A DNA stretch of 64,000 nucleotides, from the NCBI GenBank assembly GCA_027923505.1, contig BROI01000022.1, positions 124,001-188,000 of the forward strand. The letters are read 5' to 3'. A program made the position numbers and the translations under genes. This DNA comes from Mayamaea pseudoterrestris. Taxonomy: Eukaryota. Positions 7,303-47,964 of the stretch are shown piece by piece; the stretch's first letter is position 1, and each line of letters begins with the position of its first letter. Under the pieces are notes generated by a model that made no database searches, had not been told where the DNA came from, and saw nothing but the letters and a program-made list of their open reading frames with translations.

Positions 7303-7382
<80 letters not shown>

Positions 7383-21397: not shown

Positions 21398-21464
21398 ATT
21401 GGTTTGCACCGTGAATGCAGTGAGCCCTTCACAAGGATGCCATCAACAAATGACAGGGATTTAC

Positions 21465-22131: not shown

Positions 22132-22422
22132 GCCATTTGGGCAATGAGTCTCAAGACAGTGTTAATCTTGTAACTTGTAAATCAAATCGTTGCACCTTTC
22201 GCTTGTAGCTGTCCTTGGATGGCCAATCCAAGCTTGCAGTTGCTACAATACGAGAGACGAATAAATCGCTTTCTTAACTCTTCAAGCTTAGTAAGTCTGC
22301 TTGTTTCTACTCTTTATCGCACTAGTTTCAGCAATATGCTTGTTGAATCGCTTCGAAGCCGTCGCTGCCACGCATCACGCGATCGTGAGGCTGTGGTGAG
22401 CCGCGAGTGCCGCTGTGTCACC

Positions 22423-23835: not shown

Positions 23836-24361
23836 GCTTGCAGGTATAAAAAGTCACTGCTGATTGTTGAGACGTGAAAGTTGCAGCCTCGTCACAACTT
23901 ATTTCCCTGCTTTCGTCCCGAATTCGTTCCACTACTCAGCTATGAATGAACGGCAAAGGATTGCAAAGCGCTTCTTTAACTTAGATAATACTGAAAAGCT
24001 TCTCTTCTTGAAAGTCTGCTGCCTTTTAAAGTGATCTTGTCGAGGCAAGCCAACCTCAACCACTTGGCATGCGCTGCGAGGTCTGCAGGCGCCGCGACAC
24101 CCCATCTCGCAGGCAAGTTAATGCAATTAGGTCCCTTTTCAACATGGTTTATCGCAGGATTAGCTCAGTGGAAGAGCGAAACGTTTACACCGTTTAGGTC
24201 GGGAGTTCGAACCTCTCATCCTGTATCATTGTTTTACAACCGCAGATGGATACATTCATTTTGTTTGTTTGGAAGAACCGAGCACTCGCAGCAAGAAGAA
24301 GAACTTGTCTACTGACCCCTCTAGTCCATTTCAATTCTTGTTTGTTGGCATGATGGGCCAA
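22481..24361. repeat. Segmental duplication copy 2; paired with 19548-21397
   Basis: Similarity starts at AGCGGAAC (19548/22481) and fades after GTTGGCATGATGGGCCA. Confidence 0.93.
24154..24225 (+). tRNA. tRNA-Val(TAC), 72 nt, no intron
   Basis: Cloverleaf folded by hand: acceptor GCAGGAT/ATCCTGT, D-stem GCTC/GAGC, anticodon stem AAACG/CGTTT with loop TTTACAC, T-stem GGGAG/CTCTC with loop TTCGAAC, discriminator A. A T-run follows shortly downstream. Confidence 0.93.
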
Positions 24362-24766
24362 TGTTGCTTTATATAGTTGCACTACAGTGTCCATCACCAT
24401 GTATGCCATGGTGAGACTGAGCACATTCAACAACTGGTTGGATCTGCTAGCAATGCACCTCAAGTGGCAAGTGAGACTTCCAAAATGGCCTACAGAACCC
24501 ATAATACAACAGACATGGACTTTAACATTGAATGGGACTCATAGACGTGTCAATGTGGGTGTGGAACCCATGACTATGCCCTGCAACTCCGCACACAAAT
24601 GGTTGAATGTACCAGCATTGCAGCCTTTTTTGTGGCAGGGATCATCAGCATTGCCAGCTGAGCCCTCCAATTGCTTTCAATTCATGCTTCCTGTCATGAA
24701 AGGCCAAACATTGGTCAGTAGCACCTCAGTATCCACCACCATATGTGCCATGGTGAGACTCAGCAG

Positions 24767-27700
24767 AAGGGTTTGACCATGCAGGTGCTCAATGGATGCT
24801 CCATTGGTGCACCAGTGGCGCCTTCTAATCAGATGACCCTATAAGTGGCGCTCAGAAGGATTTTCCTTCTCGCCATCACTGAGCTACTTGGATGCCATGG
24901 AAGGGTTTCACCATGCCAAATGAACATACGGGACAAGGGTTTGGCCATGCAGGTGCTCATTAGATGCTCCATTGGTGCACCAGTGGTGCCTTCTAAACAG
25001 ATGAGCCTTCAAATGGCGCTCAGAAGGATTTTCCTTCTCGCCATCAATGAGCTACTTGGATGCCATGGAGGGGTTTCACCACACCAAATGAATATATGGG
25101 ACAAGGGTTTAGCCATGCAGGTGCTCATTAGATGCTCATTGGTGCACCAGTGGCGCCATCTAAACAGATGCCCCAACAACTAGCGCTCAGAAGGATTTTC
25201 CTTTTCGCCGTCACTGAGCTACTTGGATGCCATGGAGGGGTTTCACCACACCAAATGAACATACGGGACAATGGTTTGGCCATGCAGGTGCTCATTGGAT
25301 GCTCCATTGGTGCACCAGTGGCGCCTTCTAAACAGATGAGCCTTCAAGTGGCGCTCAGAAGGATTTTCCTTCTCGCCATCACTGAGCTACTTGGATGCCA
25401 TGGAGGGGTTTCACCACACCAAATGAACATACGGGACAATGGTTTGGCCATGCAGGTGCTCATTGGATGCTCCATTGGTGCACCAGTGGCGCCTTCTAGG
25501 CAGATGCCCCAACAAGTGGCGCTCAGAAGGATTTTCCTTCTCGCCATCACTGAGCTACTTGGATGCCATGGAGGGGTTTCACCACACCAAATGAACATAC
25601 GGGACAAGGGTTTGGCCATGCAGGTGCTCATTGGATGCTCCATTGGTGCCCCAGTGGTGCCTTCTAGGCAGATGAGCCTTCAAGTGGTGCTCAGAAGGAT
25701 TTTCCTTCTCGCCGTCATTGAGCTACTTGGATGACATGGAGGGGTTTCACCACACCAAATGAACATGCGGGACAAGGGTTTGGCCATGCAGGTGCTCATT
25801 GGATGCTCCATTGGTGCACCAGTGGCGCCTTCTAGGCAGATGACCCTTCAAGTGGCGCTCAGAAGGATTTTCCTTCTCGCCGTCACTGAGCTACTTGGAT
25901 GCCATGGAGGGGTTTCACCACACCAAATGAACATATGGGACAAGGGTTTGGCCATGCAGGTGCTCATTGGATGCTCCATTGGTGCACCAGTGGCGCCTTC
26001 TAAACAGATGAGCCTTCAAGTGGCGCTCAGAAGGATTTTCCTTCTCGCCATCACTGAGCTACTTGGATGCCATGGAGGGGTTTCACCACACCAAATGAAC
26101 ATACAGGACAAGGGTTTGGCCATGCAGGTGCTCATAGGATGCTCCATTGGTGCACCAGTGGCGCCTTCTAGGCAGATGGCCCTTCAACTGGCGCTCAGAA
26201 GGATTTTCCTTCTCGCCGTCACTGAGCTACTTGGATGCCACCCAAATAAAAGAAAGGTTTGGCAGTGGATGCTCCATTGGGCACAGGTTCGGCGCTCACC
26301 GCCACTGGAGGGTTTTCACCACACCAAATGAACATACGGGACAAGGGTTTGGCCATGCAGGTGCTCATTGGATGCTCCATTGGTGCACCAGTGGCGCCTT
26401 CTAGGCAGATGGCCCTTCAACTGGCGCTCAGAAGGATTTTCCTTCTCGCCGTCACTGAGCTACTTGGATGCCATGGAGGGGTTTCACCACACCAAATGAA
26501 CATACGGGACAAGGGTTTGGCCATGCAGGTGCTCATTGGATGCTCCATTGGTGCACCAGTGGCGCCGTCTAGGCAGATGACCCTTCAAGTGGCGCTCAGA
26601 AGGATTTTCCTTCTCGCCGTCACTGAGCTACTTGGATGCCATGGAGGGGTTTCACCATGCCAAATGAACATACGGGACAAGGGTTTGGCCATGCAGGTGC
26701 TCATTGGATGCTCCATTGGTGCACCAGTGGCACCTTCTAGGCAGATGGCCCTTCAACTGGCGCTCAGAAGGTTTTTCCTTCTCGCCGTCACTGAGCTACT
26801 TGGATGCCATGGAGGGGTTTCACCACACCAAATGAACATACGGGACAAGGGTTTGGCCATGCAGGTGCTCATTGGATGCTCCATTGGTGCACCAGTGGCG
26901 CCTTCTAGGCAGATGCCCCTTCAACTGGCGCTCAGAAGGATTTTCCTTCTCGCCGTCACTGAGCTACTTGGATGCCATGGAGGGGTTTCACCACGCCAAA
27001 TGAACATACGGGACAAGGGTTTGGCCATGCAGGTGCTCATTGGATGCTCCATTGGTGCACCAGTGGCGCCTTCTAGGCAGATGGCCTTCAACTGGTGCTC
27101 AGAAGGATTTTCCTTCTCGCCGTCACTGAGCTACTTGGATGCCATGGAGGGGTTTCACCATGCCAAATGAACATACGGGACAAGGGTTTGGCCATGCAGG
27201 TGCTCATTGGATGCTCCATTGGTGCACCAGTGGCGCCTTCTAAACAGATGAGCCTTCAAGTGGCGCTCAGAAGGATTTTCCTTCTCGCCGTCACTGAGCT
27301 ACTTGGATGCCATGGAGGGGTTTCACCACACCAAATGAACATACGGGACAAGGGTTTGGCCATGCAGGTGCTCATTGGATGCTCCATTGGTGCACCAGTG
27401 GCGCCTTCTAGGCAGATGGCCCTTCAACTGGCGCTCAGAAGGTTTTTCCTTCTCGCCGTCACTGAGCTACTTGGATGCCATGGAGGGGTTTCACCACACC
27501 AAATGAACATACGGGACAAGGGTTTGGACATGCAGGTGCTCATTGGATGCTCCATTGGTGCACCAGTGGCGCCTTCTAGGCAGATGCCCCTTCAACTGGC
27601 GCTCAGAAGGTTTTTCCTTCTCGCCGTCACTGAGCTACTTGGATGCCATGGAGGGGTTTCACCACACCAAATGAACATACGGGACAAGGGTTTGGCCATG

Positions 27701-30700
27701 CAGGTGCTCATTGGATGCTCCATTGGTGCACCAGTGGCGCCTTCTAGGCAGATGCCCCTTCAAGTGGCGCTCAGAAGGATTTTCCTTCTCGCCATCACTG
27801 AGCTACTTGGATGCCATGGAAGGGTTTCACAATGCCAAATGAACATACGGGATAATGGTTTGGCCATGCAGGTGCTCATTGGATGCCCCTTTGGGGCACC
27901 AGTGGCGCCTGCTAGACAGATGACCCAACAAGTAGCGCTCAGAAGGATTTTCCTTCTCGCCGTCACTGAGCTACTTGGATGCCATGGAGGGGTTTCACCA
28001 CACCAAATGAACATACGGGACAAGGGTTTGGCCATGCAGGTGCTCATTGGATGCTCCATTGGTGCACCAGTGGCGCCTTCTAGGCAGATGGCCCTTCAAG
28101 TGGCGCTCAGAAGGATTTTCCTTCTCGCCATCACTGAGCTACTTGGATGCCATGGAGGGGTTTCACCACACCAAATGAACATACGGGACAAGGGTTTGGC
28201 CATGCAGGTGCTCATTGGATGCTCCATTGGTGCACCAGTGGCGCCTTCTAGGCAGATGCCCCTTCAACTGGCGCTCAGAAGGATTTTCCTTCTCGCCGTC
28301 ACTGAGCTACTTGGATGCCATGGAGGGGTTTCACCACACCAAATGAACATATGGGACAATGGTTTGGCCATGCAGATGCTCATTGGATGCTCCATTGGTG
28401 CACCAGTGGCGCCTTCTAGGCAGATGCCCCTTCAACTGGCGCTCAGAAGGATTTTCCTTCTCGCCGTCACTGAGCTACTTGGATGCCATGGAGGGGTTTC
28501 ACCACGCCAAATGAACATACGGGACAAGGGTTTGGCCATGCAGGTGCTCATTGGATGCTCCATTGGTGCACCAGTGGCGCCTTCTAGGCAGATGGCCCTT
28601 CAACTGGCGCTCAGAAGGATTTTCCTTCTCGCCGTCACTGAGCTACTTGGATGCCATGGAGGGGTTTCACCACGCCAAATGAACATACGGGACAAGGGTT
28701 TGGCCATGCAGATGCTCATTGGATGCTCCATTGGTGCACCAGTGGCGCCTTCTAGGCAGATGCCTCTTCAACTGGCGCTCAGAAGGTATTTCCTTCTCGC
28801 CGTCACTGAGCTACTTGGATGCCATGGAGGGGTTTCACCACACCAAATGAACATACGGGACAAGGGTTTGGCCATGCAGGTGCTCATTGGATGCTCCATT
28901 GGTGCACCAGTGGCGCCTTCTAGGCAGATGCCCCTTCAAGTGGCGCTCAGAAGGTTTTTCCTTCTCGCCGTCACTGAGCTACTTGGATGCCATGGAGGGG
29001 TTTCACCACACCAAATGAACATATGCGACAAGGGTTTGGCCATGCAAGTGCTCAAAGGATGGTCCACTGGTGCTTCAGTGGCACCTTCTAGGCAGATGCC
29101 CCTACAAGTGGCGCTCAGAAGAATTTTTCCTTCTCGCCGTCACTGAGCTATTTGGATGCAATGGAGGAGTATGGAGGGGTTTCACCACACCAAATGAACA
29201 TATGGGACAAGGGTTTGGCCATGCAGGTGCTCATTGGATGCTCCATTGGTGCACCAGTGGCGCCTTCTAGGCAGATGGCCCTTCAACTGGCGCTCAGAAG
29301 GATTTTCCTTCTCGCCGTCACTGAGCTACTTGGATGCCATGGAGGGGTTTCACCACACCAAATGAACATACGGGACAAGGGTTTGGCCATGCAGGTGCTC
29401 ATTGGATGCTCCATTGGTGCACCAGTGGCGCCTTCTAGGCAGATGACGCTTCATGACGCGTTCAGAAGGTTTTTCCTTCTCGCCGTCACTGAGCTACTTG
29501 GATGCCATGGAGGGGTTTCACCACACCAAATGAACATACGGGACAAGGGTTTGGCCATGCAGGTGCTCATAGGATGCTCCATTGGTGCACCAGTGGCGTC
29601 TTCTAGGCAGATGGCCCTTCAACTGGCGCTCAGAAGAATTTTTCCTTCTCGCCGTCACTGAGCTACTTGGATGCCATGGAAGGGGTTCACCACACCAAAT
29701 AAACATATGGGACAAGGGTTTCGCCATGCAGGTGCTCATTGAATGCTCCATTGGTGCACCAGTGACACCTTCTAGGCAGATGGCCCTTCAACTGGCGCTC
29801 ACACCGGCGCACCAGAAGGATTTCCATGCAGTCTCATGATCTCCATGGTCACCGTGGCGCCTTCAGGCAGATGCCCTTACTGGCGCCAGAAGGATTTTCC
29901 TTCTCGCCGCACTGAGCTACGGGATGCCACAGGTTTCCACCACCATATGAACATACGGGACAAGGGTTTGGCCATGCAGGTGCTCATTGGATGCTCCATT
30001 GGTGCACCAGTGGCGCCTTCTAGGCAGATGCCCCTTCAACTGGCGCTCAGAAGGATTTTCCTTCTCGCCGTCACTGAGCTACTTGGATGCCATGGAGGGG
30101 TTTCACCACACCAAATGAACATACGGGACAAGGGTTTGGCCATGCAGGTGCTCATTGGATGCTCCATTGGTGCACCAGTGGCGCCTTCTAGGCAGATGGC
30201 CCTTCAACTGGCGCTCAGAAGGATTTTCCTTCTCGCCGTCACTGAGCTACTTGGATGCCATGGAGGGGTTTCACCACACCAAATGAACATAAGGGACAAG
30301 GGTTTGGCCATGCAGGTGCTCATTGGATGCTCCATTGGTGCACCAGTGGCGCCTTCCAAACAGATGAGCCTTCAAGTGGTGCTCAGAAGGATTTTCCTTC
30401 TCGCTGTCACTGAGCTACTTGGATGCCATGGAGGGGTTTCACCACGCCAAATGAACATACGGGACAAGGGTTTGGCCATGCAGATGCTCATTGGATGCTC
30501 CATTGGTGCACCAGTGGCGCCTTCTAGGCAGATGCCCCTTCAACTGGCGCTCAGAAGGATTTTCCTTCTCGCCGTCACTGAGCTACTTGGATGCCATGGA
30601 GGGGTTTCACCACACCAAATGAACATACGGGACAAGGGTTTGGCCATGCAGGTGCTCATTGGATGCTCCATTGGTGCACCAGTGGCGCCTTCTAGGCAGA

Positions 30701-33700
30701 TGGCCCTTCAACTGGCGCTCAGAAGGATTTTCCTTCTCGCCGTCACTGAGCTACTTGGATGCCATGGAGGGGTTTCACCACACCAAATGAACATACGGGA
30801 CAAGGGTTTGGCCATGCAGGTGCTCATTGGATGCTCCATTGGTGCACCAGTGGCGCCTTCTAGGCAGATGGCCCTTCAACTGGCGCTCAGAAGGATTTTC
30901 CTTCTCGCCATCACTGAGCTACTTGGATGCCATGGCGGGGTTTCACCACGCCAAATGAACATACGGGACAAGGGTTTGGCCATGCAGGTGCTCATTGGAT
31001 GCTCCATTGGTGCACCAGTGGCGCCTTCTAGGCAGATGCCCCTTCAACTGGCGCTCAGAAGGATTTTCCTTCTCGCCGTCACTGAGCTACTTGGATGCCA
31101 TGGAGGGGTTTCACCACGCCAAATGAACATACAGGACAAGGGTTTGGCCATGCAGGTGCTCATTGGATGCTCCATTGGTGCACCAGTGGCGCCTTCTAGG
31201 CAGATGGCCCTTCAACTGGCGCTCAGAAGGATTTTCCTTCTCGCCATCACTGAGCTACTTGGATGCCATGGAGGGGTTTCACCACACCAAATGAACATAC
31301 GGGACAAGGGTTTGGCCATGCAGGTGCTCATTGGATGCTCCATTGGTGCACCAGTGGCGCCTTCTAGGCAGATGGCCCTTCAACTGGCGCTCAGAAGGAT
31401 TTTCCTTCTCGCCATCACTGAGCTACTTGGATGCCATGGAGGGGTTTCACCACACCAAATGAACATACGGGACAAGGGTTTGGCCATGCAGGTGCTCATT
31501 GGATGCTCCATTGGTGCACCAGTGGCGCCTTCTAGGCAGATGCCCCTTCAACTGGCGCTCAGAAGGATTTTCCTTCTCGCCGTCACTGAGCTACTTGGAT
31601 GCCATGGAGGGGTTTCACCACACCAAATGAACATACAGGACAAGGGTTTGGCCATGCAGGTGCTCATTGGATGCTCCATTGGTGCACCAGTGGCGCCTTC
31701 TAGGCAGATGGCCCTTCAACTGGCGCTCAGAAGGTTTTTCCTTCTCGCCGTCACTGAGCTACTTGGATGCCATGGAGGGGTTTCACCACGCCAAATGAAC
31801 ATACGGGACAAGGGTTTGGCCATGCAGGTGCTCATTGGATGCTCCATTGGTGCACCAGTGGCGCCTTCTAGGCAGATGGCCCTTCAACTGGCGCTCAGAA
31901 GGATTTTCCTTCTCGCCGTCACTGAGCTACTTGGATGCCATGGAGGGGTTTCACCACACCAAATGAACATATGGGACAAGGGTTTGGCCATGCAGGTGCT
32001 CATTGGATGCTCCATTGGTGCACCAGTGGCGCCTTCTAGGCAGATGGCCCTTCAACTGGCGCTCAGAAGGTTTTTCCTTCTCGCCGTCACTGAGCTACTT
32101 GGATGCCATGGAGGGGTTTCACCACGCCAAATGAACATACGGGACAAGGGTTTGGCCATGCAGGTGCTCATTGGATGCTCCATTGGTGCACCAGTGGCGC
32201 CTTCTAGGCAGATGGCCCTTCAACTGGCGCTCAGAAGGATTTTCCTTCTCGCCGTCACTGAGCTACTTGGATGCCATGGCGGGGTTTCACCACGCCAAAT
32301 GAACATACGGGACAAGGGTTTGGCCATGCAGGTGCTCATTGGATGCTCCATTGGTGCACCAGTGGCGCCTTCTAGGCAGATGGCCCTTCAACTGGCGCTC
32401 AGAAGGATTTTCCTTCTCGCCGTCACTGAGCTACTTGGATGCCATGGAGGGGTTTCACCACGCCAAATGAACATACGGGACAAGGGTTTGGCCATGCAGG
32501 TGCTCATTGGATGCTCCATTGGTGCACCAGTGGCGCCTTCTAGGCAGATGCCCCTTCAACTGGCGCTCAGAAGGATTTTCCTTCTCGCCATCACTGAGCT
32601 ACTTGGATGCCACAGAGGGGTTTTACTACACCAAATGAACATACAGGACAAGGGTTTGGCCATGCAGGTGCTCATTGGATGCTCCATTGGTGCACCAGTG
32701 GCGCCTTCTAGGCAGATGGCCCTTCAACTGGTGCTCAGAAGGTTTTTCCTTCTCGCCGTCACTGAGCTACTTGGATGCCATGGAGGGGTTTCACCACACC
32801 AAATGAACATACGGGACAAGGGTTTGGCCATGCAGGTGCTCATTGGATGCTCCATTGGTGCACCAGTGGCGCTTTCTAGGCAGATGCCCCTTCAACTGGT
32901 GCTCAGAAGGTTTTTCCTTCTCGCCGTCACTGAGCTACTTGGATGCCATGGAGGGGTTTCACCACGCCAAATGAACATACAGGACAAGGGTTTGGCCATG
33001 CAGGTGCTCATTGGATGCTCCATTGGTGCACCAGTGGCGCCTTCTAGGCAGATGGCCCTTCAACTGGCGCTCAGAAGGTTTTTCCTTCTCGCCGTCACTG
33101 AGCTACTTGGATGCCATGGCGGGGTTTCACCACGCCAAATGAACATACGGGACAAGGGTTTGGCCATGCAGGTGCTCATTGGATGCTCCATTGGTGCACC
33201 AGTGGCGCCTTCTAGGCAGATGGCCCTTCAACTGGCGCTCAGAAGGTTTTTCCTTCTCGCCGTCACTGGGTTATTTGGATGCATTGGGGGGGTGTCACCA
33301 CGCCAAATGAACATACAGGACAAGGGTTTGGCCATGCAGGTGCTCATAGGATGCTCCATTGGTGCACCAGTGGCGCCTTCTAGGCAGATGGCCCTTCAAC
33401 TGGCGCTCAGAAGGATTTTCCTTCTCACCGTCACTGAGGTACTTGGATGCCATGGAGGGGTTTCACCACACCAAATGAACATATTGGACAAGGGTTTGGC
33501 CATGCAGGTGCTCATTGGATGCTCCATTGGTGCACCAGTGGCGCCTTCTAGGCAGATGGCCCCTCTACTGGCGCTCAGAAGGTTTTTCCTTCTCGCCGTC
33601 ACTGAGATACTTGGATGCCATGGCGGGATTTCACCACACCAAATGAACATACGGGACAAGGGTTTGGCCATGCAGGTGCTCATTGGATGCTCCATTGGTG

Positions 33701-36700
33701 CACCAGTGGCGCCTTCTAGGCAGATGGCCCTTTAAGTGGCGCTCAGAAGTATTTTCCTTCTCGCCTTCACTGAGATACTTGGATGCCATGAGGGGTCTCA
33801 CTACAGCCAAATGAACATATGGGACAAGGGTTTGGCCATGCAGGTGCTCATTTGATGCTCCACTGGTGCACCAGTGGCACCTTCTGGGCAGACGACCCTT
33901 CAACTGGCGATCAGAAGGTTGTTCCTTCTCGGCGTCACTGAGCTACTTGGATGCCATGGAGGGGTTTCACCACACCAAATGAACATACGGGACAAGGGTT
34001 TGGCCATGCAGGTGCTCATTGGATGCTCCATTGGTGCACCAGTGGCGCCTTCTAGGCAGATGGCCCTTCAACTGGCGCTCAGAAGGATTTTCCTTCTCGC
34101 CGTCACTGAGCTACTTGGATGCCATGGAGGGGTTTCACCACACCAAATGAACATACGGGACAAGGGTTTGGCCATGCAGGTGCTCATAGGATGCTCCATT
34201 GGTGCACCAGTGGCGCCTTCTAGGCAGATGGCCCTTCAACTGGCGCTCAGAAGGATTTTCCTTCTCGCCATCACTGAGCTACTTGGATGCCATGGAGGGG
34301 TTTCACCACGCCAAATGAACATATGGGACAAGGGTTTGGCCATGCAGGTGCTCATTGGATGCTCCATTGGTGCACCAGTGGCGCCTTCTAGGCAGATGGC
34401 CCTTCAACTGGCGCTCAGAAGGATTTTCCTTCTCGCCGTCACTGAGCTACTTGGATGCCATGGAGGGGTTTCACCACACCAAATGAACATACGGGACAAG
34501 GGTTTGGCCATGCAGGTGCTCATTGGATGCTCCATTGGTGCACCAGTGGCGCCTTCTAGGCAGATGGCCCTTCAACTGGCGCTCAGAAGGTTTTTCCTTC
34601 TCGCCGTCACTGAGCTACTTGGATGCCATGGAGGGGTTTCACCACACCAAATGAACATACGGGACAAGGGTTTGGCCATGCAGGTGCTCATTGGATGCTC
34701 CATTGGTGCACCAGTGGCGCCTTCTAGGCAGATGGCCCTTCAACTGGCGCTCAGAAGGTTTTTCCTTCTCGCCGTCACTGAGCTACTTGGATGCCATGGA
34801 GGGGTTTCACCACGCCAAATGAACATACGGGACAAGGGTTTGGCCATGCAGGTGCTCATTGGATGCTCCATTGGTGCACCAGTGGCGCCTTCTAGGCAGA
34901 TGGCCCTTCAACTGGCGCTCAGAAGGTTTTTCCTTCTCGCCGTCACTGAGCTACTTGGATGCCATGGAGGGGTTTCACCACACCAAATGAACATACAGGA
35001 CAAGGGTTTGGCCATGCAGGTGCTCATTGGATGCTCCATTGGTGCACCAGTGGCGCCTTCTAGGCAGATGGCCCTTCAACTGGCGCTCAGAAGGATTTTC
35101 CTTCTCGCCGTCACTGAGCTACTTGGATGCCATGGAGGGGTTTCACCACACCAAATGAACATACGGGACAAGGGTTTGGCCATGCAGGTGCTCATTGGAT
35201 GCTCCATTGGTGCACCAGTGGCGCCTTCTAGGCAGATGGCCCTTCAACTGGCGCTCAGAAGGATTTTCCTTCTCGCCGTCACTGAGCTACTTGGATGCCA
35301 TGGCGGGGTTTCACCACACCAAATGAACATACGGGACAAGGGTTTGGCCATGCAGGTGCTCATTGGATGCTCCATTGGTGCACCAGTGGCGCCTTCTAGG
35401 CAGATGGCCCTTCAACTGGCGCTCAGAAGGATTTTCCTTCTCGCCGTCACTGAGCTACTTGGATGCCATGGCGGGGTTTCACCACGCCAAATGAACATAT
35501 GGGACAAGGGTTTGGCCATGCAGGTGCTCATTGGATGCTCCATTGGTGCACCAGTGGCGCCTTCTAGGCAGATGGCCCTTCAACTGGCGCTCAGAAGGAT
35601 TTTCCTTCTCGCCGTCACTGAGCTACTTGGATGCCATGGCGGGGTTTCACCACACCAAATGAACATACGGGACAAGGGTTTGGCCATGCAGGTGCTCATT
35701 GGATGCTCCATTGGTGCACCAGTGGCGCCTTCTAGGCAGATGGCCCTTCAACTGGCGCTCAGAAGGTTTTTCCTTCTCGCCGTCACTGAGCTACTTGGAT
35801 GCCATGGAGGGGTTTCACCACGCCAAATGAACATACGGGACAAGGGTTTGGCCATGCAGGTGCTCATAGGATGCTCCATTGGTGCACCAGTGGCACCTTC
35901 TAGGCAGATGGCCCTTCAACTGGCGCTCAGAAGGTTTTTCCTTCTCGCCGTCACTGAGCTACTTGGATGCCATGGAGGGGTTTCACCACACCAAATGAAC
36001 ATATGGGACAAGGGTTTGGCCATGCAGGTGCTCATTGGATGCTCCATTGGTGCACCAGTGGCGCCTTCTAGGCAGATGGCCCTTCAACTGGCGCTCAGAA
36101 GGATTTTCCTTCTCGCCGTCACTGAGCTACTTGGATGCCATGGAGGGGTTTCACCACACCAAATGAACATATGGGACAAGGGTTTGGCCATGCAGGTGCT
36201 CATTGGATGCTCCATTGGTGCACCAGTGGCGCCTTCTAGGCAGATGGCCCTTCAAGTGGCGCTCAGAAGGTTTTTCCTTCTCGCCGTCACTGAGCTACTT
36301 GGATGCCATGGCGGGGTTTCACCACACCAAATGAACATACAGGACAAGGGTTTGGCCATGCAGGTGCTCATTGGATGCTCCATTGGTGCACCAGTGGCGC
36401 CTTCTAGGCAGATGGCCCTTCAACTGGCGCTCAGAAGGATTTTCCTTCTCGCCGTCACTGAGCTACTTGGATGCCATGGCGGGGTTTCACCACGCCAAAT
36501 GAACATACGGGACAAGGGTTTGGCCATGCAGGTGCTCATTGGATGCTCCATTGGTGCACCAGTGGCGCCTTCTAGGCAGATGGCCCTTCAACTGGCGCTC
36601 AGAAGGATTTTCCTTCTCGCCGTCACTGAGCTACTTGGATGCCATGGAGGGGTTTCACCACACCAAATGAACATACAGGACAAGGGTTTGGCCATGCAGG

Positions 36701-39700
36701 TGCTCATTGGATGCTCCATTGGTGCACCAGTGGCGCCTTCTAGGCAGATGGCCCTTCAACTGGCGCTCAGAAGGTTTTTCCTTCTCATCGTCACTGAGCT
36801 ACTTGGATGCCATGGCGGGGTTTCACCACACCAAATGACAATATGGGACAAGGGTTTGGCCATGCAGGTGCTCATTGCATGCTCCATTGGTGCACCAGTG
36901 GCGCCTTCTAGGCAGATGGTTCTTCAACTGGCGCTCAGAAGGTTTTTCCTTCTCGCCGTCACCGAGCTACTTGGATGCCATGGCGGGGTTTCACCACGCC
37001 AAATGAACGTATGGGACAAGGGTTTGGCCATGCAGGTGCTCATTGGATGCTCCATTGGTGCACCAGTGGCGCCTTCTAGGCAGATGGCCCTTCAACTGGC
37101 GCTCAGAAGGATTTTCCTTCTCGCCGTCACTGAGCTACTTGGATGCCATGGCGGGGTTTCACCACACCAAATGAACATACGGGACAAGGGTTTGGCCATG
37201 CAGGTGCTCATTGGATGCTCCATTGGTGCACCAGTGGCACCTTCTAGGCAGATGGCCCTTCAACTGGCGCTCAGAAGGTTTTTCCTTCTCGCCGTCACTG
37301 AGCTACTTGGATGCCATGGAGGGGGTTCACCACACCAAATGAACATACGGGACAAGGGTTTGGCCATGCAGGTGCTCATTGGATGCTCCATTGGTGCACC
37401 AGTGGCGCCTTCTAGGCAGATGGCCCTTCAACTGGCGCTCAGAAGGATTTTCCTTCTCGCCGTCACTGAGCTACTTGGATGCCATGGCGGGGTTTCACCA
37501 CGCCAAATGAACATACGGGACAAGGGTTTGGCCATGCAGGTGCTCATTGGATGCTCCATTGGTGCACCAGTGGCGCCTTCTAGGCAGATGGCCCTTCAAC
37601 TGGCGCTCAGAAGGTTTTTCCTTCTCGCCGTCACTGAGCTACTTGGATGCCATGGCAGGGGTTTCACCACGCCAAATGAACATACGGGACAAGGGTTTGG
37701 CCATGCAGGTGCTCATTGGATGCTCCATTGGTGCACCAGTGGCGCCTTCTAGGCAGATGGCCCTTCAACTGGCGCTCAGAAGGTTTTTCCTTCTCGCTGT
37801 CACTGAGCTACTTGGATGCCATGGCGGGTTTTCACCACACCAAATGAACATACGGGACAAGGGTTTGGCCATGCAGGTGCTCATTGGATGCTCCATTGGT
37901 GCACCAGTGGCGCCTTCTAGGCAGATGGCCCTTCAACTGGCGCTCAGAAGGTTTTTCCTTCTCGCCGTCACTGAGCTACTTGGATGCCATGGCGGGGTTT
38001 CACCACGCCAAATGAACATATGGGACAAGGGTTTGGCCATGCAGGTGCTCATTGGATGCTCCATTGGTGCACCAGTGGCGCCTTCTAGGCAGATGGCCCT
38101 TCAACTGGCGCTCAGAAGGTTTTTCCTTCTCGCCATCACTGAGCTACTTGGATGCCATGGAGGGGTTTCACCACGCCAAATGAACATATGGGACAAGGGT
38201 TTGGCCATGCAGGTGCTCATTGGATGCTCCATTGGTGCACCAGTGGCGCCTTCTAGGCAGATGGCCCTTCAACTGGCGCTCAGAAGGTTTTTCCTTCTCG
38301 TCGTCACTGAGCTACTTGGATGCCATGGCGGGGTTTCACCACACCAAATGAACATACGGGACAAGGGTTTGGCCATGCAGGTGCTCATTGGATGCTCCAT
38401 TGGTGCACCAGTGGCGCCTTCTAGGCAGATGGCCCTTCAACTGGCGCTCAGAAGGTTTTTCCTTCTCGTCGTCACTGAGCTACTTGGATGCCATGGCGGG
38501 GTTTCACCACACCAAATGAACATACGGGACAAGGGTTTGGCCATGCAGGTGCTCATTGGATGCTCCATTGGTGCACCAGTGGCGCCTTCTAGGCAGATGG
38601 CCCTTCAACTGGCGCTCAGAAGGAATTTCCTTCTCGCCGTCACTGAGCTACTTGGATGCCATGGCGGGGTTTCACCACGCCAAATGAACATACGGGACAA
38701 GGGTTTGGCCATGCAGGTGCTCATTGGATGCTCCATTGGTGCACCAGTGGCGCCTTCTAGGCAGATGGCCCTTCAACTGGCGCTCAGAAGGATTTTCCTT
38801 CTCGCCGTCACTGAGCTACTTGGATGCCATGGCGGGGTTTCACCACACCAAATGAACATACGGGACAAGGGTTTGGCCATGCAGGTGCTCATTGGATGCT
38901 CCATTGGTGCACCAGTGGCGCCTTCTAGGCAGATGGCCCTTCAACTGGCGCTCAGAAGGAATTTCCTTCTCGCCGTCACTGAGCTACTTGGATGCCATGG
39001 CGGGGTTTCACCACGCCAAATGAACATACGGGACAAGGGTTTGGCCATGCAGGTGCTCATTGGATGCTCCATTGGTGCACCAGTGGCGCCTTCTAGGCAG
39101 ATGGCCCTTCAACTGGCGCTCAGAAGGATTTTCCTTCTCGCCGTCACTGAGCTACTTGGATGCCATGGCGGGGTTTCACCACACCAAATGAACATACGGG
39201 ACAAGGGTTTGGCCATGCAGGTGCTCATTGGATGCTCCATTGGTGCACCAGTGGCGCCTTCTAGGCAGATGGCCCTTCAACTGGCGCTCAGAAGGTTTTT
39301 CCTTCTCGCCATCACTGAGCTACTTGGATGCCATGGAGGTGTTTCACCACGCCAAATGAACATACAGGACAAGGGTTTGGCCATGCAGGTGCTCATTGGA
39401 TGCTCCAATGGTGCACCAGTGGCGCCTTCTAGGCAGATGGCCCTTCAACTGGCGCTCAGAAGGAATTTCCTTCTCGCCGTCACTGAGCTACTTGGATGCC
39501 ATGGCGGGGTTTCACCACGCCAAATGAACATACGGGACAAGGGTTTGGCCATGCAGGTGCTCATTGGATGCTCCAATGGTGCACCAGTGGCGCCTTCTAG
39601 GCAGATGGCCCTTCAACTGGCGCTCAGAAGGATTTTCCTTCTCGCCGTCACTGAGCTACTTGGATGCCATGGCGGGGTTTCACCACACCAAATGAACATA

Positions 39701-42700
39701 TGGGACAAGGGTTTGGCCATGCAGGTGCTCATTGGATGCTCCATTGGTGCACCAGTGGCGCCTTCTAGGCAGATGGCCCTTCAACTGGCGCTCAGAAGGT
39801 TTTTCCTTCTCGCCGTCACTGAGCTACTTGGATGCCATGGCGGGGTTTCACCACACCAAATGAACATATGGGACAAGGGTTTGGCCATGCAGGTGCTCAT
39901 TGGATGCTCCATTGGTGCACCAGTGGCGCCTTCTAGGCAGATGGCCCTTCAACTGGCGCTCAGAAGGATTTTCCTTCTCGCCGTCACTGAGCTACTTGGA
40001 TGCCATGGCGGGGTTTCACCACGCCAAATGAACATACGGGACAAGGGTTTGGCCATGCAGGTGCTCATTGGATGCTCCATTGGTGCACCAGTGGCGCCTT
40101 CTAGGCAGATGGCCCTTCAACTGGCGCTCAGAAGGTTTTTCCTTCTCGCCGTCACTGAGCTACTTGGATGCCATGGCGGGGTTTCACCACGCCAAATGAA
40201 CATACGGGACAAGGGTTTGGCCATGCAGGTGCTCATTGGATGCTCCATTGGTGCACCAGTGGCGCCTTCTAGGCAGATGGCCCTTCAACTGGCGCTCAGA
40301 AGGTTTTTCCTTCTCGCCGTCACTGAGCTACTTGGATGCCATGGCGGGGTTTCACCACACCAAATGAACATATTGGACAAGGGTTTGGCCAAGCAGGTGC
40401 TCATTGAATGCTCCATTGGTGCACCATTGGCGCCTTCTAGGCAGATGGCCCTTCAACTGGCGCTCAGAAGGAATTTCCTTCTCGCCGTCACTGAGCTACT
40501 TGGATGCCATGGCGGGGTTTCACCACGCCAAATGAACATATTGGACAAGGGTTTGGCCATGCAGGTGCTCATTGGATGCTCCATTGGTGCACCAGTGGCG
40601 CCTTCTAGGCAGATGGCCCTTCAACTGGCGCTCAGAAGGATTTTCCTTCTCGCCGTCAGTGAGCTACTTGGATGCCATGGCGGGGTTTCACCACACCAAA
40701 TGAACATATGGGACAAGGGTTTGGCCATGCAGATGATCATAGGATGCTCCAATGGTGCACCAGTGGCGCCTTCGGCAGACCCTTCAACTGGCGCTCAGAA
40801 GGATTTTCCTTCTCGCTGTCACTGAGCTACTTGGATGCCATGGAGGGGTTTCACCACACCAAATGAACATATGGGACAAGGGTTTGGCCATGCAGGTGCT
40901 CATTGGATGCTCCAATGGTGCACCAGTGGCGCCTTCTAGGCAGATGGCCCTTCAACTGGCGCTCAGAAGGTTTTTCCTTCTCGCTGTCACTGAGCTACTT
41001 GGATGCCATGGCGGGGTTTCACCACACCAAATGAACATACAGGACAAGGGTTTGGCCATGCAGGTGCTCATTGGATGCTCCATTGGTGCACCATTGGCGC
41101 CTTCTAGGCAGATGGCCCTTCAACTGGCGCTCAGAAGGAATTTCCTTCTCGCCGTCACTGAGCTACTTGGATGCCATGGCGGGGTTTCACCACACCAAAT
41201 GAACATACAGGACAAGGGTTTGGCCATGCAGGTGCTCATTGGATGCTCCATTGGTGCACCAGTGGCGCCTTCTAGGCAGATGGCCCTTCAACTGGCGCTC
41301 AGAAGGATTTTCCTTCTCGCCGTCACTGAGCTACTTGGATGCCATGGAGGGGTTTCACCACACCAAATGAACATACGGGACAAGGGTTTGGCCATGCAGG
41401 TGCTCATTGGATGCTCCATTGGTGCACCAGTGGCGCCTTCTAGGCAGATGGCCCTTCAACTGGCGCTCAGAAGGATTTTCCTTCTCGCCGTCACTGAGCT
41501 ACTTGGATGCCATGGAGGGGTTTCACCACACCAAATGAACATACGGGACAAGGGTTTGGCCATGCAGGTGCTCATTGGATGCTCCATTGGTGCACCAGTG
41601 GCGCCTTCTAGGCAGATGCCCTTTCAACTGGCGCTCAGAAGGTTTTTCCTTCTCGCTGTCACTGAGCTACTTGGATGCCATGAGGGGTTTCACTACAGCC
41701 AAATGAACATATGGGACAAGGGTTTGGCCATGCAGGTGCTCATTTGATGCTCCACTGGTGCACCAGTGGCACCTTCTGGGCAGACGACCCTTCAACTGGC
41801 GATCAGAAGGTTGTTCCTTCTCGGCGTCACTGAGCTACTTGGATGCCATGGAGGGGTTTTGCCGCGCCATATGAACATATGGGACAAAGGTTTAGCCATG
41901 CAGGTGCTCATTGGATGCTCCATTGGTGCACCAGTGGCGCCTTCTAGGCAGATGCCCCTTCAACTGGCGCTCAGAAGGATTTTCCTTCTCGCCGTCACTG
42001 AGCTACTTGGATGCCATGGAGGGGTTTCACCACACCAAATGAACATACGGGACAAGGGTTTGGCCATGCAGGTGCTCATTGGATGCTCCATTGGTGCACC
42101 AGTGGCGCCTTCTAGGCAGATGACCCTTCAAGTGGCGCTCAGAAGGATTTTCCTTCTCGCCGTCACTGAGCTACTTGGATGCCATGGAGGGGTTTCACCA
42201 CACCAAATGAACATACGGGACAATGGTTTGGCCATGCAGGTGCTCATTGGATGCTCCATTGGTGCACCAGTGACGCCTTCTAGACAGATGACCCTTCAAC
42301 TAGCGCTCAGAAGGATTTTCCTTCTCGCCGTCACTGAGCTACTTGGATGCCATGGAGGGGTTTCACCACACCAAATGAACATACGGGACAAGGGTTTGGC
42401 CATGCAGGTGCTCATTGGATGCTCCATTGGTGCACCAGTGGCACCTTCTAGGCAGATGCCCCCACAACTGGTGCTCAGAAGGTATTTCCTTCTCGCCGTC
42501 ACTGAGCTACATGGATGCCATGGAGGGGTTTCACCACACCAAATGACAAGGACAAGGGGTTTGGCCATGCAGGTGCTCATTGGATGCTCCAATGGTGCAC
42601 CAGTGGCGCCTTCTAGGCAGATGGCCCTTCAACTGGCGCTCAGAAGGATTTTCCTTCTCGCCGTCACTGAGCTACTTGGATGCCATGGAGGGGTTTCACC

Positions 42701-45700
42701 ACACCAAATGAACATACGGGACAAGGGTTTGGCCATGCAGGTGCTCATTGGATGCTCCATTGGTGCACCAGTGGCGCCTTCTAGGCAGATGGCCCTTCAA
42801 CTGGCGCTCAGAAGGATTTTTCTTCTCGCTGTCACTGAGCTACTTGGATGCCATGGAGGGGTTTCACCACACCAAATGAACATACAGGACAAGGGTTTGG
42901 CCATGCAGGTGCTCGTTGGATGCTCCATTGGTGCACCAGTGGCGCCTTCTAGGCAGATGGCCCTTCAACTGGCGCTCAGAAGGATTTTCCTTCTCGCCGT
43001 CACTGAGCTACTTGGATGCCATGGAGGGGTTTCACCACACCAAATGAACATACAGGACAAGGGTTTGGCCATGCAGGTGCTCATTGGATGCTCCATTGGT
43101 GCACCAGTGGCGCCTTCTAGGCAGATGGCCCTTCAACTGGCGCTCAGAAGGATTTTCCTTCTCGCCGTCACTGAGCTACTTGGATGCCATGGCGGGGTTT
43201 TACCACACCAAATGAACATACAGGACAAGGGTTTGGCCATGCAGGTGCTCATTGGATGCTCCATTGGTGCACCAGTGACACCTTCTAGGCAGATGGCCCT
43301 TCAACTGGCGCTCAGAAGGATTTTCCTTCTCGCCATCACTGAGCTACTTGGATGCCATGGAGGGGTTTCACCACACCAAATGAACATACAGGACAAGGGT
43401 TTGGCCATGCAGGTGCTCATAGGATGCTCCATTGGTGCACCAGTGGCGCCATTTAGGCAGATGGCCCTTCAAGTGGCGCTCAGAAGGTTTTTCCTTCTCG
43501 CCATCACTGAGCTACTTGGATGCCATGGAGGGGTTTCACCACACCAAATGAACATACAGGACAAGGGTTTGGCCATGCAGGTGCTCGTTGGATGCTCCAT
43601 TGGTGCACCAGTGGCGCCTTCTAGGCAGATGGCCCTTCAAGTGGCGCTCAGAAGGATTTTCCTTCTCGCCGTCACTGAGCTACTTGGATGCCATGGAGGG
43701 GTTTCACCACACCAAATGAACATACAGGACAAGGGTTTGGCCATGCAGGTGCTCATAGGATGCTCCATTGGTGCACCAGTGGCGCCTTCTAGGCAGATGG
43801 CCCTTCAAGTGGCGCTCAGAAGGATTTTCCTTCTCGCCGTCACTGAGCTACTTGGATGCCATGGAGGGGTTTCACCACACCAAATGAACATATGGGACAA
43901 GGGTTTGGCCATGCAGGTGCTCATAGGATGCTCCATTGGTGCACCAGTGGCGCCTTCTAGGCAGATGGCCCTTCAACTGGCGCTCAGAAGGATTTTCCTT
44001 CTCGCCGTCACTGAGCTACTTGGATGCCATGGAGGGGTTTCACCACACCAAATGAACATACGGGACAAGGGTTTGGCCATGCAGGTGCTCATTGGATGCT
44101 CCATTGGTGCACCAGTGGCACCTTCTAGGCAGATGGCCCTTCAAGTGGCGCTCAGAAGGATTTTCCTTCTCGCCATCACTGAGCTACTTGGATGCCATGG
44201 AGGGGTTTCACCACACCAAATGAACATATGGGACAAGGGTTTGGCCATGCAGGTGCTCATAGGATGCTCCATTGGTGCACCAGTGGCGCCTTCTAGGCAG
44301 ATGGCCCTTCAAGTGGCGCTCAGAAGGTTTTTCCTTCTCGCCGTCACTGAGCTACTTGGATGCCATGGAGGGGTTTCACCACACCAAATGAACATACAGG
44401 ACAAGGGTTTGGCCATGCAGGTGCTCATAGGATGCTCCATTGGTGCACCAGTGGCACCTTCTAGGCAGATGGCCCTTCAACTGGCACTCAGAAGGATTTT
44501 CCTTCTCGCCATCACTGAGCTACTTGGATGCCATGGAGGGGTTTCACCACACCAAATGAACATACAGGACAAGGGTTTGGCCATGCAGGTGCTCGTTGGA
44601 TGCTCCATTGGTGCACCAGTGGCGCCTTCTAGGCAGATGGCCCTTCAAGAGGCGCTCAGAAGGATTTTCCTTCTCGCCGTCACTGAGCTACTTGGATGCC
44701 CCGGAGGGGTTTCACCACACCAAATGAACATACAGAACAAGGGTTTGGCCATGCAGGTGCTCACAGGATGCTCCATTGGTGCACCAGTGGCGCCATTTAG
44801 GCAGATGGCCCTTCAAGTGGCGCTCAGAAGGTTTTTCCTTCTCGCCGTCACTGAGCTACTTGGATGCCATGGAGGGGTTTCACCACACCAAATGAACATA
44901 TGGGACAAGGGTTTGGCCATGCAGGTGCTCATAGGATGCTCCATTGGTGCACCAGTGGCGCCATTTAGGCAGATGGCCCTTCAACTGGCGCTCAGAAGGA
45001 TTTTCCTTTTCGTTGTCACTGAGCTACTTGGATGCCATGGAGGGGTTTCACCACACCAAATGAATATATAGGACAAGGGTTTGGCCATGCAGGTGCTCAT
45101 AGGATGCTCCATTGGTGCACCAGTGGCGCCTTCTAGGCAGATGGCCCTTCAACTGGCGCTCAGAAGGATTTTCCTTCTCGCCGTCACTGAGCTACTTGGA
45201 TGCCATGGAGGGGTTTCACCACACCAAATGAACATACAGGACAAGGGTTTGGCCATGCAGGTGCTCATAGGATGCTCCATTGGTGCACCAGTGGCGCCAT
45301 TTAGGCAGATGGCCCTTCAAGTGGCACTCAGAAGGATTTTCCTTCTCGCCGTCACTGAGCTACTTGGATGCCATGGAGGGGTTTCACCACACCAAATGAA
45401 CATATGGGACAAGGGTTTGGCCATGCAGGTGCTCATAGGATGCTCCATTGGTGCACCAGTGGCGCCATTTAGGCAGATGGCCCTTCAAGTGGCGCTCAGA
45501 AGGTTTTTCCTTCTCGCCGTCACTGAGCTACTTGGATGCCATGGAGGGGTTTCACCACACCAAATGAACATACAGGACAAGGGTTTGGCCATGCAGGTGC
45601 TCATTGGATGCTCCATTGGTGCACCAGTGGCGCCTTCTAGGCAGATGGCCCTTCAAGAGGCGCTCAGAAGGAATTTCCTTCTCGCCGTCACTGAGCTACT

Positions 45701-46320
45701 TGGATGCCATGGAGGGGTTTCACCACACCAAATGAACATACAGAACAAGGGTTTGGCCATGCAGGTGCTCATAGGATGCTCCATTGGTGCACCAGTGGCG
45801 CCATTTAGGCAGATGGCCCTTCAAGTGGCGCTCAGAAGGATTTTCCTTCTCGCCGTCACTGAGCTACTTGGATGCCATGGAGGGATTTCCCCACACCTGA
45901 TGAATATATGAGACAAGGGTTTGGCCATGCAGGTGCTCATAGGATGCTCCATTGGTGCACCAGTGGCGCCATTTAGGCAGATGGCCCTTCAACTGGCGCT
46001 CAGAAGGATTTTCCTTCTGAGCTACTTAGATGCCATGGATGGGTTTCACCATGCTAAATGAACATACGGGATAAGGGTTTGGCCATGCAGGTGCTCATTA
46101 GATGCTCCATTGGTGCACCAGTGGCGCCTTCGAAACAGATGAGCCTTTAAATGGCGCTCAGAAGGATTTTCCTTCTCGCCGTCACTGAGCTACTTGGATG
46201 CCATGGAGGGGTTTCACCACACCAAATGATCATATGGGGCAAGGGTTTGGCCATGCAGGTGCTCATTGGATGCTCCATTGGTGCACCAGTGGCACCTTCT
46301 AGGCAGATGACCCTTCAAGT
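24767..46320. repeat. Tandem satellite array, 168-bp monomer, ~128 head-to-tail copies (~21.5 kb)
   Basis: Period measured directly (ATGAAC at 30115 and 30283). Consensus ATGAACATACGGGACAAGGGTTTGGCCATGCAGGTGCTCATTGGATGCTCCATTGGTGCACCAGTGGCGCCTTCTAGGCAGATGGCCCTTCAACTGGCGCTCAGAAGGATTTTCCTTCTCGCCGTCACTGAGCTACTTGGATGCCATGGAGGGGTTTCACCACACCAA, ~55% GC by hand count. Confidence 0.98.
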
Positions 46321-46654
46321 TTGTTAGTCCTTTGGTGGCAAGCTCAAGTCGTTCTGTGACAGCTTTTCTGGTGTACCTTTTTACCCACTCTATGAACTTC
46401 TGCATGGTCAAAACTTTGTTACATTTATGCTAATTCCAGAATCCGCTCACTGATGGGGGGAGGAAATTCTCTTCTGACAGTGAGTACAGACCGCACGTAA
46501 GCGGTATTAAAAAGTTCTGCCTACGACACTTGATTTTGTAACGACCGTCACGCAATCATTTTTTTCTTTGGGAGAGCAAGCAAAACACGGCATCATTCTG
46601 TAGCTGTCTATTTATAACAGTGCCTATTGACCTCAAGACGTGCATTTAGATATA

Positions 46655-47881
46655 ATGAGTGGATATCGTAGTCTGCATCGCGAGCAAGTTCTATCAAACG
46701 ACGGAAATGATTCCATTTGGACCATTGCTACAACGCCCTTGCTCTGCAAAAGCAAGACCAAGAAGGAGTCGGCATGGAGACTCTGGATGGGATCATCGTC
46801 GAGCGAAAGTATCAAGCTGTTTCGTGTCGAGGAAATTTCTTTGGAAACCAAAGCAGCCGATTTGAATGCGTCTGCCATGCGGCTGCAGTGTACGCATGAG
46901 TTCATTGGGAAGCAGCAGCAAGCAAATCGAAAGCAAAAAGAAGCAACGGACAAAGACGCTAGTTCATCATCAGTTGCAATATCATTTGGCTGCTCGAGTA
47001 TATCGATTGTTAGAAACTACATTGGACAGGACGATGATGCTGGAGACTACTTAATCATGGCCTTGGATTTGGCAGGTCACGTTCGCATGTGGAGTCTGCC
47101 GGAAGATTGGGACGACAATCATGATGCTGCAGTTGCCGAGCGAGACGACAAAACTCCATTCAAGCCATGCCAAGTCAAGGCAGTCTACGAGTTTGATGTA
47201 GACGACGCGACTGGAACGTGTGCGATTCTTTTTCCGCCTCGCATTTCCGGCCAACCGGGCGACGTGTTCGCCGCCATTACATGCTTGGATGGCACCATTG
47301 CCATGGTTGCTACTGGAATAGTAACGCCAAACTACCACAAGGAACCGACAAGTACAGGAACAATCATTGACTCCTATGGAAGTCGGGGCTCGGCACTGGC
47401 AATGAGTCTCTGCTGGCATCCAAAGCAGCAACATTTATTGTGCACCGGTCGAAAAGACGGAAGCATTGACCTATTGACGCAATCACGAAAGAACCAACAT
47501 CGACTGCAACGTCACACAGCGCCTGTTCGTGCTGTCGCATTTACTGATGATGGTCACTTGTTGATATCAGCGAGTGATGCTGGAACAATTTTGATTTGGG
47601 ACGTTACAAGACCAGCTCCAGTGCTTGTCCACCATGTCATGCAGGCTCATAAAAGTTGGATTCTGAATATCGCCACGCTGCCAGATAGTCGCCGGTTTGT
47701 CACGTGTGGAGCCGATCGCAAAATACATGTATGGAGCGTTGGCCAAATGCATCAAGCGGTTCATACCTTTCAAGCCGACGCGGAAATCTGGGCGCTAGCG
47801 CGAGGGCCTGTGCAAAATAGTCCTCGGCTTGTGACAGGGTCGGAGAATGGTCATTTGCAAGTGTATTCTCTAGAAAAATAG
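46655..47881 (+). CDS. WD40-repeat protein, WDR61/Ski8-like
   Basis: WD repeats HTAPVRAVAFTDDGHLLISASDAGTILIWD and AHKSWILNIATLPDSRRFVTCGADRKIHVW. The N-terminal DSIWTI and the terminal VHTF...IW...LVTGSENGHLQVY parallel WDR61. Confidence 0.75.
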   Translation: MSGYRSLHREQVLSNDGNDSIWTIATTPLLCKSKTKKESAWRLWMGSSSSESIKLFRVEEISLETKAADLNASAMRLQCTHEFIGKQQQANRKQKEATDKDASSSSVAISFGCSSISIVRNYIGQDDDAGDYLIMALDLAGHVRMWSLPEDWDDNHDAAVAERDDKTPFKPCQVKAVYEFDVDDATGTCAILFPPRISGQPGDVFAAITCLDGTIAMVATGIVTPNYHKEPTSTGTIIDSYGSRGSALAMSLCWHPKQQHLLCTGRKDGSIDLLTQSRKNQHRLQRHTAPVRAVAFTDDGHLLISASDAGTILIWDVTRPAPVLVHHVMQAHKSWILNIATLPDSRRFVTCGADRKIHVWSVGQMHQAVHTFQADAEIWALARGPVQNSPRLVTGSENGHLQVYSLEK

Positions 47882-47964
47882 TACAAAATAAGAAGTATAG
47901 TGCGGTACGCTATGGTGTTTAACAGCTGCTATGTGTGGTTTGAATACAGCTGCTTAGTACAATC

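Follow-up and report, generated by a model that had tools for sequence, protein, structure and literature searches.

We analysed a window of 64,000 nucleotides from the diatom Mayamaea pseudoterrestris (GenBank assembly GCA_027923505.1, contig BROI01000022.1, positions 124,001 to 188,000 of the forward strand; coordinates below are those of the window) and found that it carries a long array of a 168-bp tandem repeat set directly between ordinary genes. The repeat belongs to a non-coding satellite family whose arrays are spread over several loci, and we read the block as a probably methylated, non-centromeric one, a reading to which we attach a probability of roughly 0.55. On present evidence, the block looks like selfish or structural satellite DNA rather than a site at which a kinetochore is formed.

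The main array (24767-46318, plus strand) consists of ~128 head-to-tail monomers with a period of 168 bp and was reported by Tandem Repeats Finder (TRF) as three adjoining rows that sum to 127.9 copies over 21.5 kb, which is the extent of the array as assembled. A BLAST search of the window with a single monomer returned 136 pieces, all of them on the plus strand. The main array accounts for 131, and the other 5 fall in a small array to its left that is absent from the initial annotation. The consensus was taken from 111 gap-free monomers. Differences from it number 7 to 12 per monomer at the left edge, 6 to 11 at the right edge and mostly 0 to 4 in the core, which also holds diverged monomers at 33688 (19 differences) and at 41580 and 41748 (17 each). 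The GC content per 2-kb window is 0.535 to 0.550 within the array versus 0.474 to 0.522 outside it, and the next open reading frame (ORF), which encodes a WD40-repeat protein, starts 336 bp past the right end. The initial annotation had described ~128 head-to-tail monomers of nucleosome length in gene-dense DNA, with a homogeneous core, more diverged edges, a GC content of ~55% and genes resuming about 330 bp beyond the right end, and all of this was borne out, as was its guess that the DNA comes from a diatom.

The array starts and ends abruptly on both sides. A sensitive BLAST search found no degenerate monomers in either flank apart from one short piece ahead of the small array, and we therefore rejected the idea of a trail of decayed monomers leading leftward from 24767. 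Mean monomer-to-monomer identity is flat, at 96.0 to 96.6%, for lags of 1 to 40 units and declines slowly farther out, and neither this measure nor a self-comparison of the main array, which showed no low-divergence diagonal, gave any sign of a higher-order repeat. A large internal duplication, which a marker monomer common to 33688 and 41580 (47 units apart) might have indicated, was rejected on the ground that the neighboring monomers disagree. The array is interrupted twice, and both interruptions, together with the unit that follows the second, may be consensus errors of the Nanopore long reads.

The unit of 168 bp corresponds to 56 codons, and one plus frame of the monomer is free of stop codons, a feature that the initial annotation had overlooked. 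ORFs of up to 1,299 amino acids are present in the array, whose longest stop-free stretch in that frame is 3,960 bp; the three minus frames contain 294 to 354 stops each. Such ORFs have been called as genes in the public annotation, and they would be expected of a giant tandem-repeat protein gene built from 56-amino-acid units, with a frame broken solely by long-read assembly errors, which some of the indels do resemble. We consider such a gene very improbable. A stop-free frame of 56 codons has a probability of (61/64)^56 = 0.07 per frame, which by arithmetic makes it expected by chance in about one-third of random monomers over six frames. Distinct variants among the 111 gap-free monomers are spread almost evenly over codon positions 1, 2 and 3 (35, 33 and 39, respectively) and comprise 34 synonymous, 71 nonsynonymous and 2 stop changes, a split close to the neutral one of 128, 361 and 15 among all possible changes. 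In the adjoining WD40 gene, which served as a control, 15 of 20 listed allelic differences fall at third codon positions (there are 112 further rows). The reading frame of the array has five shifts and about a dozen breaks in total, and some of the in-frame stops (e.g., at 25732, 41745 and 45069) are of the substitution type.

An HMMER search of 1.84 billion representative proteins gave a single true match, itself a further ORF of this satellite; the remaining four hits were translated repeats of unrelated sequence with 20 to 26% identity. Pfam matches of the satellite ORF (PRTase_2, DUF2537 and GerA) were rejected as sums of weak repeated hits in which no single stretch passes the threshold. 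Because the variants are neutral with respect to codon position, the frame is broken, relatives outside the satellite are lacking in that protein set and the Pfam matches are below threshold, we conclude that the ORFs are fortuitous and that the satellite is non-coding.

Public gene models MPSEU_000908600, MPSEU_001057800, MPSEU_000937800 and MPSEU_000556500 (here P0121 to P0124) are translations of the satellite, and the precomputed Pfam labels that they carry (PF15609, PF10801, PF22892 and PF21001) are artifacts of repeated weak matches. These satellite-derived models should be removed from protein sets. The NCBI locus tags could not be equated with the gene identifiers of the genome paper; the two numberings do not match, and MPSEU_009086-T1 of the paper is a Rho-like match.

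These same gene models revealed that the satellite is not confined to the window, as the initial annotation had allowed that it might be. A protein search with a 504-residue translation of the array, which took in proteins of up to 882 amino acids, gave four matches, all of them hypothetical proteins of M. pseudoterrestris; a search among proteins of 30 to 276 amino acids gave no matches. The four matched ORFs lie on contigs of 668,940 bp (that of the window itself), 248,867 bp, 525,119 bp and 1,067,527 bp. The family is thus a multilocus one on the evidence of its ORFs, with arrays on at least three further contigs and therefore on at least 4 of the 41 contigs of the NIES-4280 Nanopore assembly (30.6 Mb, N50 of 1.07 Mb, as given in the accessible part of the genome paper, PMC9724779).

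The arrays also differ from one another. The longest exact runs that P0122 to P0124 and a further ORF product, P0125, have in common with the window are 48 to 105 amino acids long, and the frequencies of individual variants differ sharply between the loci. The M variant in the motif AMQxLIG is found in 3 of 112 monomers in the window, whereas P0123 has it in 3 of 6 and P0125 in 9 of 15. Likewise, the P variant in QMxLQ is found in 15 of 109 versus 8 of 8 in P0123, and the R variant in GVSPxQM in 30 of 112 versus 8 of 8 elsewhere. The window array and P0122 to P0125 thus show concerted evolution, as scored at the protein level with 6 to 17 monomers per other array, and such locus-specific variant profiles are, at the level of sequence, the pattern of local homogenization.

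The abundance of the monomer was assessed in contigs of two DNA-like sequencing runs, X1 and X2, of which 873 and 3,073, respectively, were compared with the last monomer and 2.8 kb of flank. The summed word depth, which is not the same as copy number, was 50,000 to 82,000 for the monomer versus ~34 for the flank in X1 and 714,000 to 1,115,000 versus ~129 in X2. The monomer is therefore some 10^3 to 10^4 times as abundant as single-copy DNA, far beyond the 132 units of the window. Two strings that follow the satellite in the run contigs have no counterpart in the window, and junctions at other loci would look like this. The massive presence of the monomer in these independent short-contig data and the ordered, nonrandom distribution of monomer variants make it hardly credible that the array is largely an artifact in which a much shorter repeat, or a single much longer one, was misrendered by the Nanopore assembly; the two deletion-riddled patches and an assembly larger than the k-mer genome size are what could be cited for such an artifact.

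X1 and X2 carry the same two flank alleles, and the genotypes are therefore not independent. The two alleles, seen at 46400-49100, differ by clustered substitutions and small indels (e.g., a 6-bp deletion at 48836) and are consistent with a published heterozygosity of 2.97% for this strain. In a run that may be RNA, to judge from partly uncovered intergenic DNA (X3), the neighboring genes had depths of 2 to 7 and the monomer only 3 to 4. A further run, X6, from organism C, was considered as evidence of conservation in a second species and rejected: it contained the monomer at 553 to 822 with flank scraps at ~2 and the X2 allele, and it looks like carryover within the study. Two patterns taken from where the monomer varies least, a 38-mer and a 24-mer, had no exact match in JGI metagenome contigs, in a scan that is blind to inexact relatives.

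A family with arrays at several loci might also have been spread by transposition, as a tandem repeat that lies inside a mobile element or derives from one (a Helitron, a miniature inverted-repeat transposable element or a sub-repeat of a long terminal repeat retrotransposon) and that was subsequently expanded. The abrupt array ends, which do not grade into degenerate monomers, would suit such an origin, as would the Ty1/Copia elements and unclassified repeats that make up 10.8% and 7.4% of the genome, respectively, in the accessible part of the published account (PMC9724779). We think it quite unlikely. None of 15 flanking ORFs contained a transposon domain by Pfam, no direct or inverted terminal repeats bound the array at this locus, and host DNA, in the form of a tRNA gene and gene promoters, directly adjoins it. 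The initial annotation had asked whether the monomer is an internal repeat of a known transposon, and at this locus the neighborhood speaks against that.

The case for a methylated block comes from the dinucleotide composition of the array. The observed/expected ratio of CpG is 0.39 in the array versus 1.07 and 1.13 in the two flanks, and TpG plus CpA is raised (1.55 versus 1.22). Changes from CpG to TpG or CpA account for 98 of 485 variant cells, at 10 CpG positions that make up 6% of all positions, and 45 more cells represent the reverse polymorphism. CpG depletion of this sort would be the deamination signature of methylated cytosine and fits methylated, silent chromatin. In diatoms, methylation is concentrated on repeats.

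The monomer also contains a short region of dyad symmetry, an 18-bp near-palindrome with a perfect core. Folded as single-stranded DNA, the monomer dimer reached -66.6 kcal/mol versus -52.4 +/- 4.4 kcal/mol for shuffled sequences (z = -3.25), and 1 of 100 shuffles did as well. The near-palindrome sits where the monomer varies least, but the low variability of that part is not significant (permutation p of 0.13). We likewise did not retain a conserved 60-bp block, which has 75 variant cells versus a mean of 173 yet a permutation p of 0.13 on distinct variants. Adjoining the palindrome, and within the same least variable part, are two ATTGG motifs (CCAAT on the opposite strand) that lie 13 bp apart at monomer positions 158-168 plus 1-12 (e.g., 35189-35211), and this pair could be a candidate protein-binding site. 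No match of the monomer to Rfam was found in a search of 21000-27000 with E values of up to 1, in which only two tRNA copies outside the array matched.

We propose that the arrays grow and are homogenized through unequal exchange and gene conversion among monomers, which would account for the uniform core, the diverged edges and the locus-specific variants, and a 2.94-kb tandem duplication next to the main array is a possible by-product of such exchange. One monomer would wrap approximately one nucleosome, and the block would be cytosine methylated and transcriptionally quiet, forming a small island of heterochromatin inside euchromatin.

The same features could belong to a satellite-type regional centromere, in which each chromosome would have a single 168-bp array that is packaged in CENH3 nucleosomes and assembles the kinetochore, with the tRNA gene and flanking genes delimiting a very small centromere domain. 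In favor of this, the nucleosome-length monomer has significant dyad symmetry, divergence is low in the core of the array and higher at its edges, arrays with locus-specific variants are found on at least 4 of 41 contigs, and the array of the window is interstitial, flanked on either side by over 17 kb of genes. An abundance of 10^3 to 10^4 flank equivalents, a depth that does not translate into copy number, would correspond to ~10 to 65 arrays of this size, which is of the order of a plausible chromosome number. In Fistulifera solaris, moreover, the low-GC method gave clear peaks on just 8 homoeologous pairs among 44 chromosomes in the accessible part of that report (10.1101/2021.11.10.468027), so that the type of centromere in that diatom is not firmly established. 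We nevertheless regard a centromeric role as doubtful.

Against it stand the centromeres described in other diatoms. Those of Phaeodactylum mapped by chromatin immunoprecipitation (ChIP) of CENP-A are short, low in GC and without repeats, and low-GC DNA of any origin, foreign DNA included, maintains episomes in that organism, according to the part of the study available (10.1101/096016). The predicted centromeres of Fistulifera are 36 to 42% GC and, as far as the available text describes them, lack highly repeated elements (10.1101/2021.11.10.468027). The array in M. pseudoterrestris has a GC content of 54 to 55%, which is higher than that of its flanks, belongs to a repeat family common to several loci, unlike tracts of the Phaeodactylum type, which have no shared repeat, and lacks a higher-order repeat, a structure typical of some centromeric satellites, although not of all. 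With the Phaeodactylum type defined as at least 500 bp of low GC (100-bp windows of 32% GC or less clustered within 3 kb), no such 500-bp tract was found in the window, which covers about one-tenth of the contig and has a lowest 500-bp GC content of 40.6%; a centromere of that type could sit elsewhere on the same chromosome. We hold it less likely than not that M. pseudoterrestris has the 168-bp repeat as its centromeric DNA, in the form of one small, GC-rich, methylated, CENH3-recruiting array per chromosome. If it were true, this would be the first satellite-based diatom centromere, and the low-GC, repeat-free type of Phaeodactylum would not be the rule for the group.

Several points weigh against our preference for a non-centromeric, methylated satellite block. 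Nucleosome length, arrays of tens of kilobases at several loci, local homogenization and dyad symmetry also fit a centromeric satellite, and the choice between a plain and a centromeric satellite leans mainly on analogy with other diatoms. Part of the CpG depletion in the consensus may go back to the one founding sequence that was amplified. The depletion fits the heterochromatin-like block suggested by the initial annotation as an indirect, sequence-level sign of methylation, closed chromatin and low transcription. The abundance estimate is derived from summed contig word depth, on which X1 and X2 disagree ~3.5-fold. Finally, the assembly, at 30.6 Mb, exceeds the k-mer estimate of 27.2 Mb by ~3.4 Mb (values from the accessible part of PMC9724779), and the smallest of the contigs that carry the satellite may therefore represent a haplotig that escaped purging and not a locus of its own.

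Centromeric satellite monomers in animals and plants are of similar length: 171 bp in human alpha satellite, ~178 bp in Arabidopsis and 155 bp in rice CentO. The Mayamaea repeat resembles these satellites in its nucleosome-length monomer, its head-to-tail arrays on several contigs with locus-specific variants, its homogeneous core with diverged edges and its short dyad-symmetric box. It differs from them in that the array is only ~21 kb long and without a higher-order repeat, is above background in GC rather than A+T rich, and abuts genes with no pericentromeric belt of transposons in the window. With the centromeres of Phaeodactylum tricornutum and Fistulifera solaris it has in common a diatom nuclear genome and a small, gene-flanked candidate region, but those consist of short stretches of low GC that have neither repeats nor a common sequence in the available parts of both reports (10.1101/096016; 10.1101/2021.11.10.468027), unlike the shared repeat family, at 54 to 55% GC, of Mayamaea. 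Satellite-length repeats that lie among genes, and not in a large heterochromatic compartment, are also known as the ~170-bp repeats in the euchromatic arms of Tribolium castaneum (PMC4675708, available part). SSUsat of Spisula subtruncata is a G+C-rich satellite of intercalary heterochromatin that makes up ~1% of the genome and the methylation of which has been studied (PMC5537241, available part). That satellite families exist in stramenopiles is illustrated, in the accessible text, by those of the oomycete Phytophthora parasitica (PMC7290008). Both are from organisms unrelated to Mayamaea and are likened to it by description only, methylation in Mayamaea being suggested by CpG decay.

To our knowledge, diatom genomes are usually portrayed as containing transposons but no classical satellite DNA, with centromeres that are short low-GC tracts. 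The 168-bp repeat has the properties of satellite DNA, namely, a long array in one orientation, a lack of coding function, high copy number at more than one locus and concerted evolution. By sequence type it is a classical satellite, one that the M. pseudoterrestris genome paper does not report. The repeat table of that paper gives "Satellites 0" and "Unclassified 7.36%" (PMC9724779, Table S3), and the accessible text gives the chromosome number as unknown and does not contain the word stems centromer-, telomer- or satellite (PMC9724779). A literature search, with subscription journals outside its coverage, found no description of a diatom satellite DNA family or satellite centromere. A compact 30-Mb diatom genome thus carries, at several loci, a nucleosome-length satellite family of a class listed as absent. 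At a minimum, this calls for a correction of the annotation and offers a tractable example of small islands of probable heterochromatin wedged between active genes. Should the arrays bind CENH3, the type of centromere would differ among pennate diatoms, which would be relevant to how centromeres turn over and to how artificial chromosomes for diatoms are designed.

Table 1. Positions of the satellite arrays, monomer features and neighboring elements in the window
Feature	Coordinates	Strand	Details
168-bp satellite, TRF row 1	24767-26240	+	8.8 copies, 93% matches
168-bp satellite, TRF row 2	26301-29801	+	20.8 copies, 94% matches
168-bp satellite, TRF row 3	29841-46318	+	98.3 copies, 96% matches
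Interruption 1	26241-26300	+	Deletion-riddled monomer piece between TRF rows 1 and 2
Interruption 2 and next monomer	29802-29991	+	Interruption at 29802-29840; next monomer has many 1-bp deletions
Small second array, same satellite	21526-22131	+	3.8 copies, period 167, 88% matches (TRF, BLAST; TRF start at 21525)
Degenerate satellite piece	21452-21486	+	Ahead of small array; sensitive BLAST
Reference monomer	35032-35199	+	Consensus of 111 gap-free monomers, 0 differences
18-bp near-palindrome CCATTGGTGCACCAGTGG	35036-35053		Monomer positions 5-22; core is a perfect 10-bp palindrome
Fortuitous satellite ORF	27167-29146	+	First 611 residues exactly those of MPSEU_000908600 (P0121), NCBI hypothetical protein
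Heavy-metal P1B-type ATPase, left neighbor	15824-20893	-	Two ORFs; E1-E2 ATPase, hydrolase and HMA domains
Truncated copy of P1B-ATPase N-terminal metal-binding part	22423-23835	-	470-amino-acid ORF; 429 of 452 residues identical (95%)
2.94-kb tandem segmental duplication	19548-21400 and 22481-24363		Copies 92-99% identical
tRNA-Val(TAC), intact	24154-24225	+	541 bp left of array; ARAGORN; Rfam RF00005, 64.9 bits
Degraded tRNA-Val duplicate	21217-21288	+	12-bp deletion at 3' end; Rfam 38 bits; missed by ARAGORN
WD40-repeat protein, right neighbor	46655-47881	+	Next ATG-started ORF, 336 bp beyond array
Perfect (CAG)25 microsatellite	7306-7381		In overlapping ORFs 6836-7951 (-) and 7186-7911 (+)
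Perfect two-copy tandem duplications, 42 bp and 18 bp	8875-8958, 9081-9118		Just upstream of cyclin-like ORF 9282-10745

The genes that flank the array are closely packed and encode, by their Pfam domains, SpoU methylase, cyclin, P1B-type ATPase, WD40, TPR and GH47 proteins (Table 1). The closest named relatives of the P1B-type ATPase are diatom proteins. In fission yeast centromeres, tRNA genes serve as heterochromatin barriers, and in the window an intact tRNA-Val gene lies just to the left of the main array. This gene is part of the segmental duplication, which comprises the 5' part of the P1B-type ATPase gene, its upstream region and the tRNA-Val gene. Satellite monomers follow each copy of the duplication, starting at a different phase of the unit.

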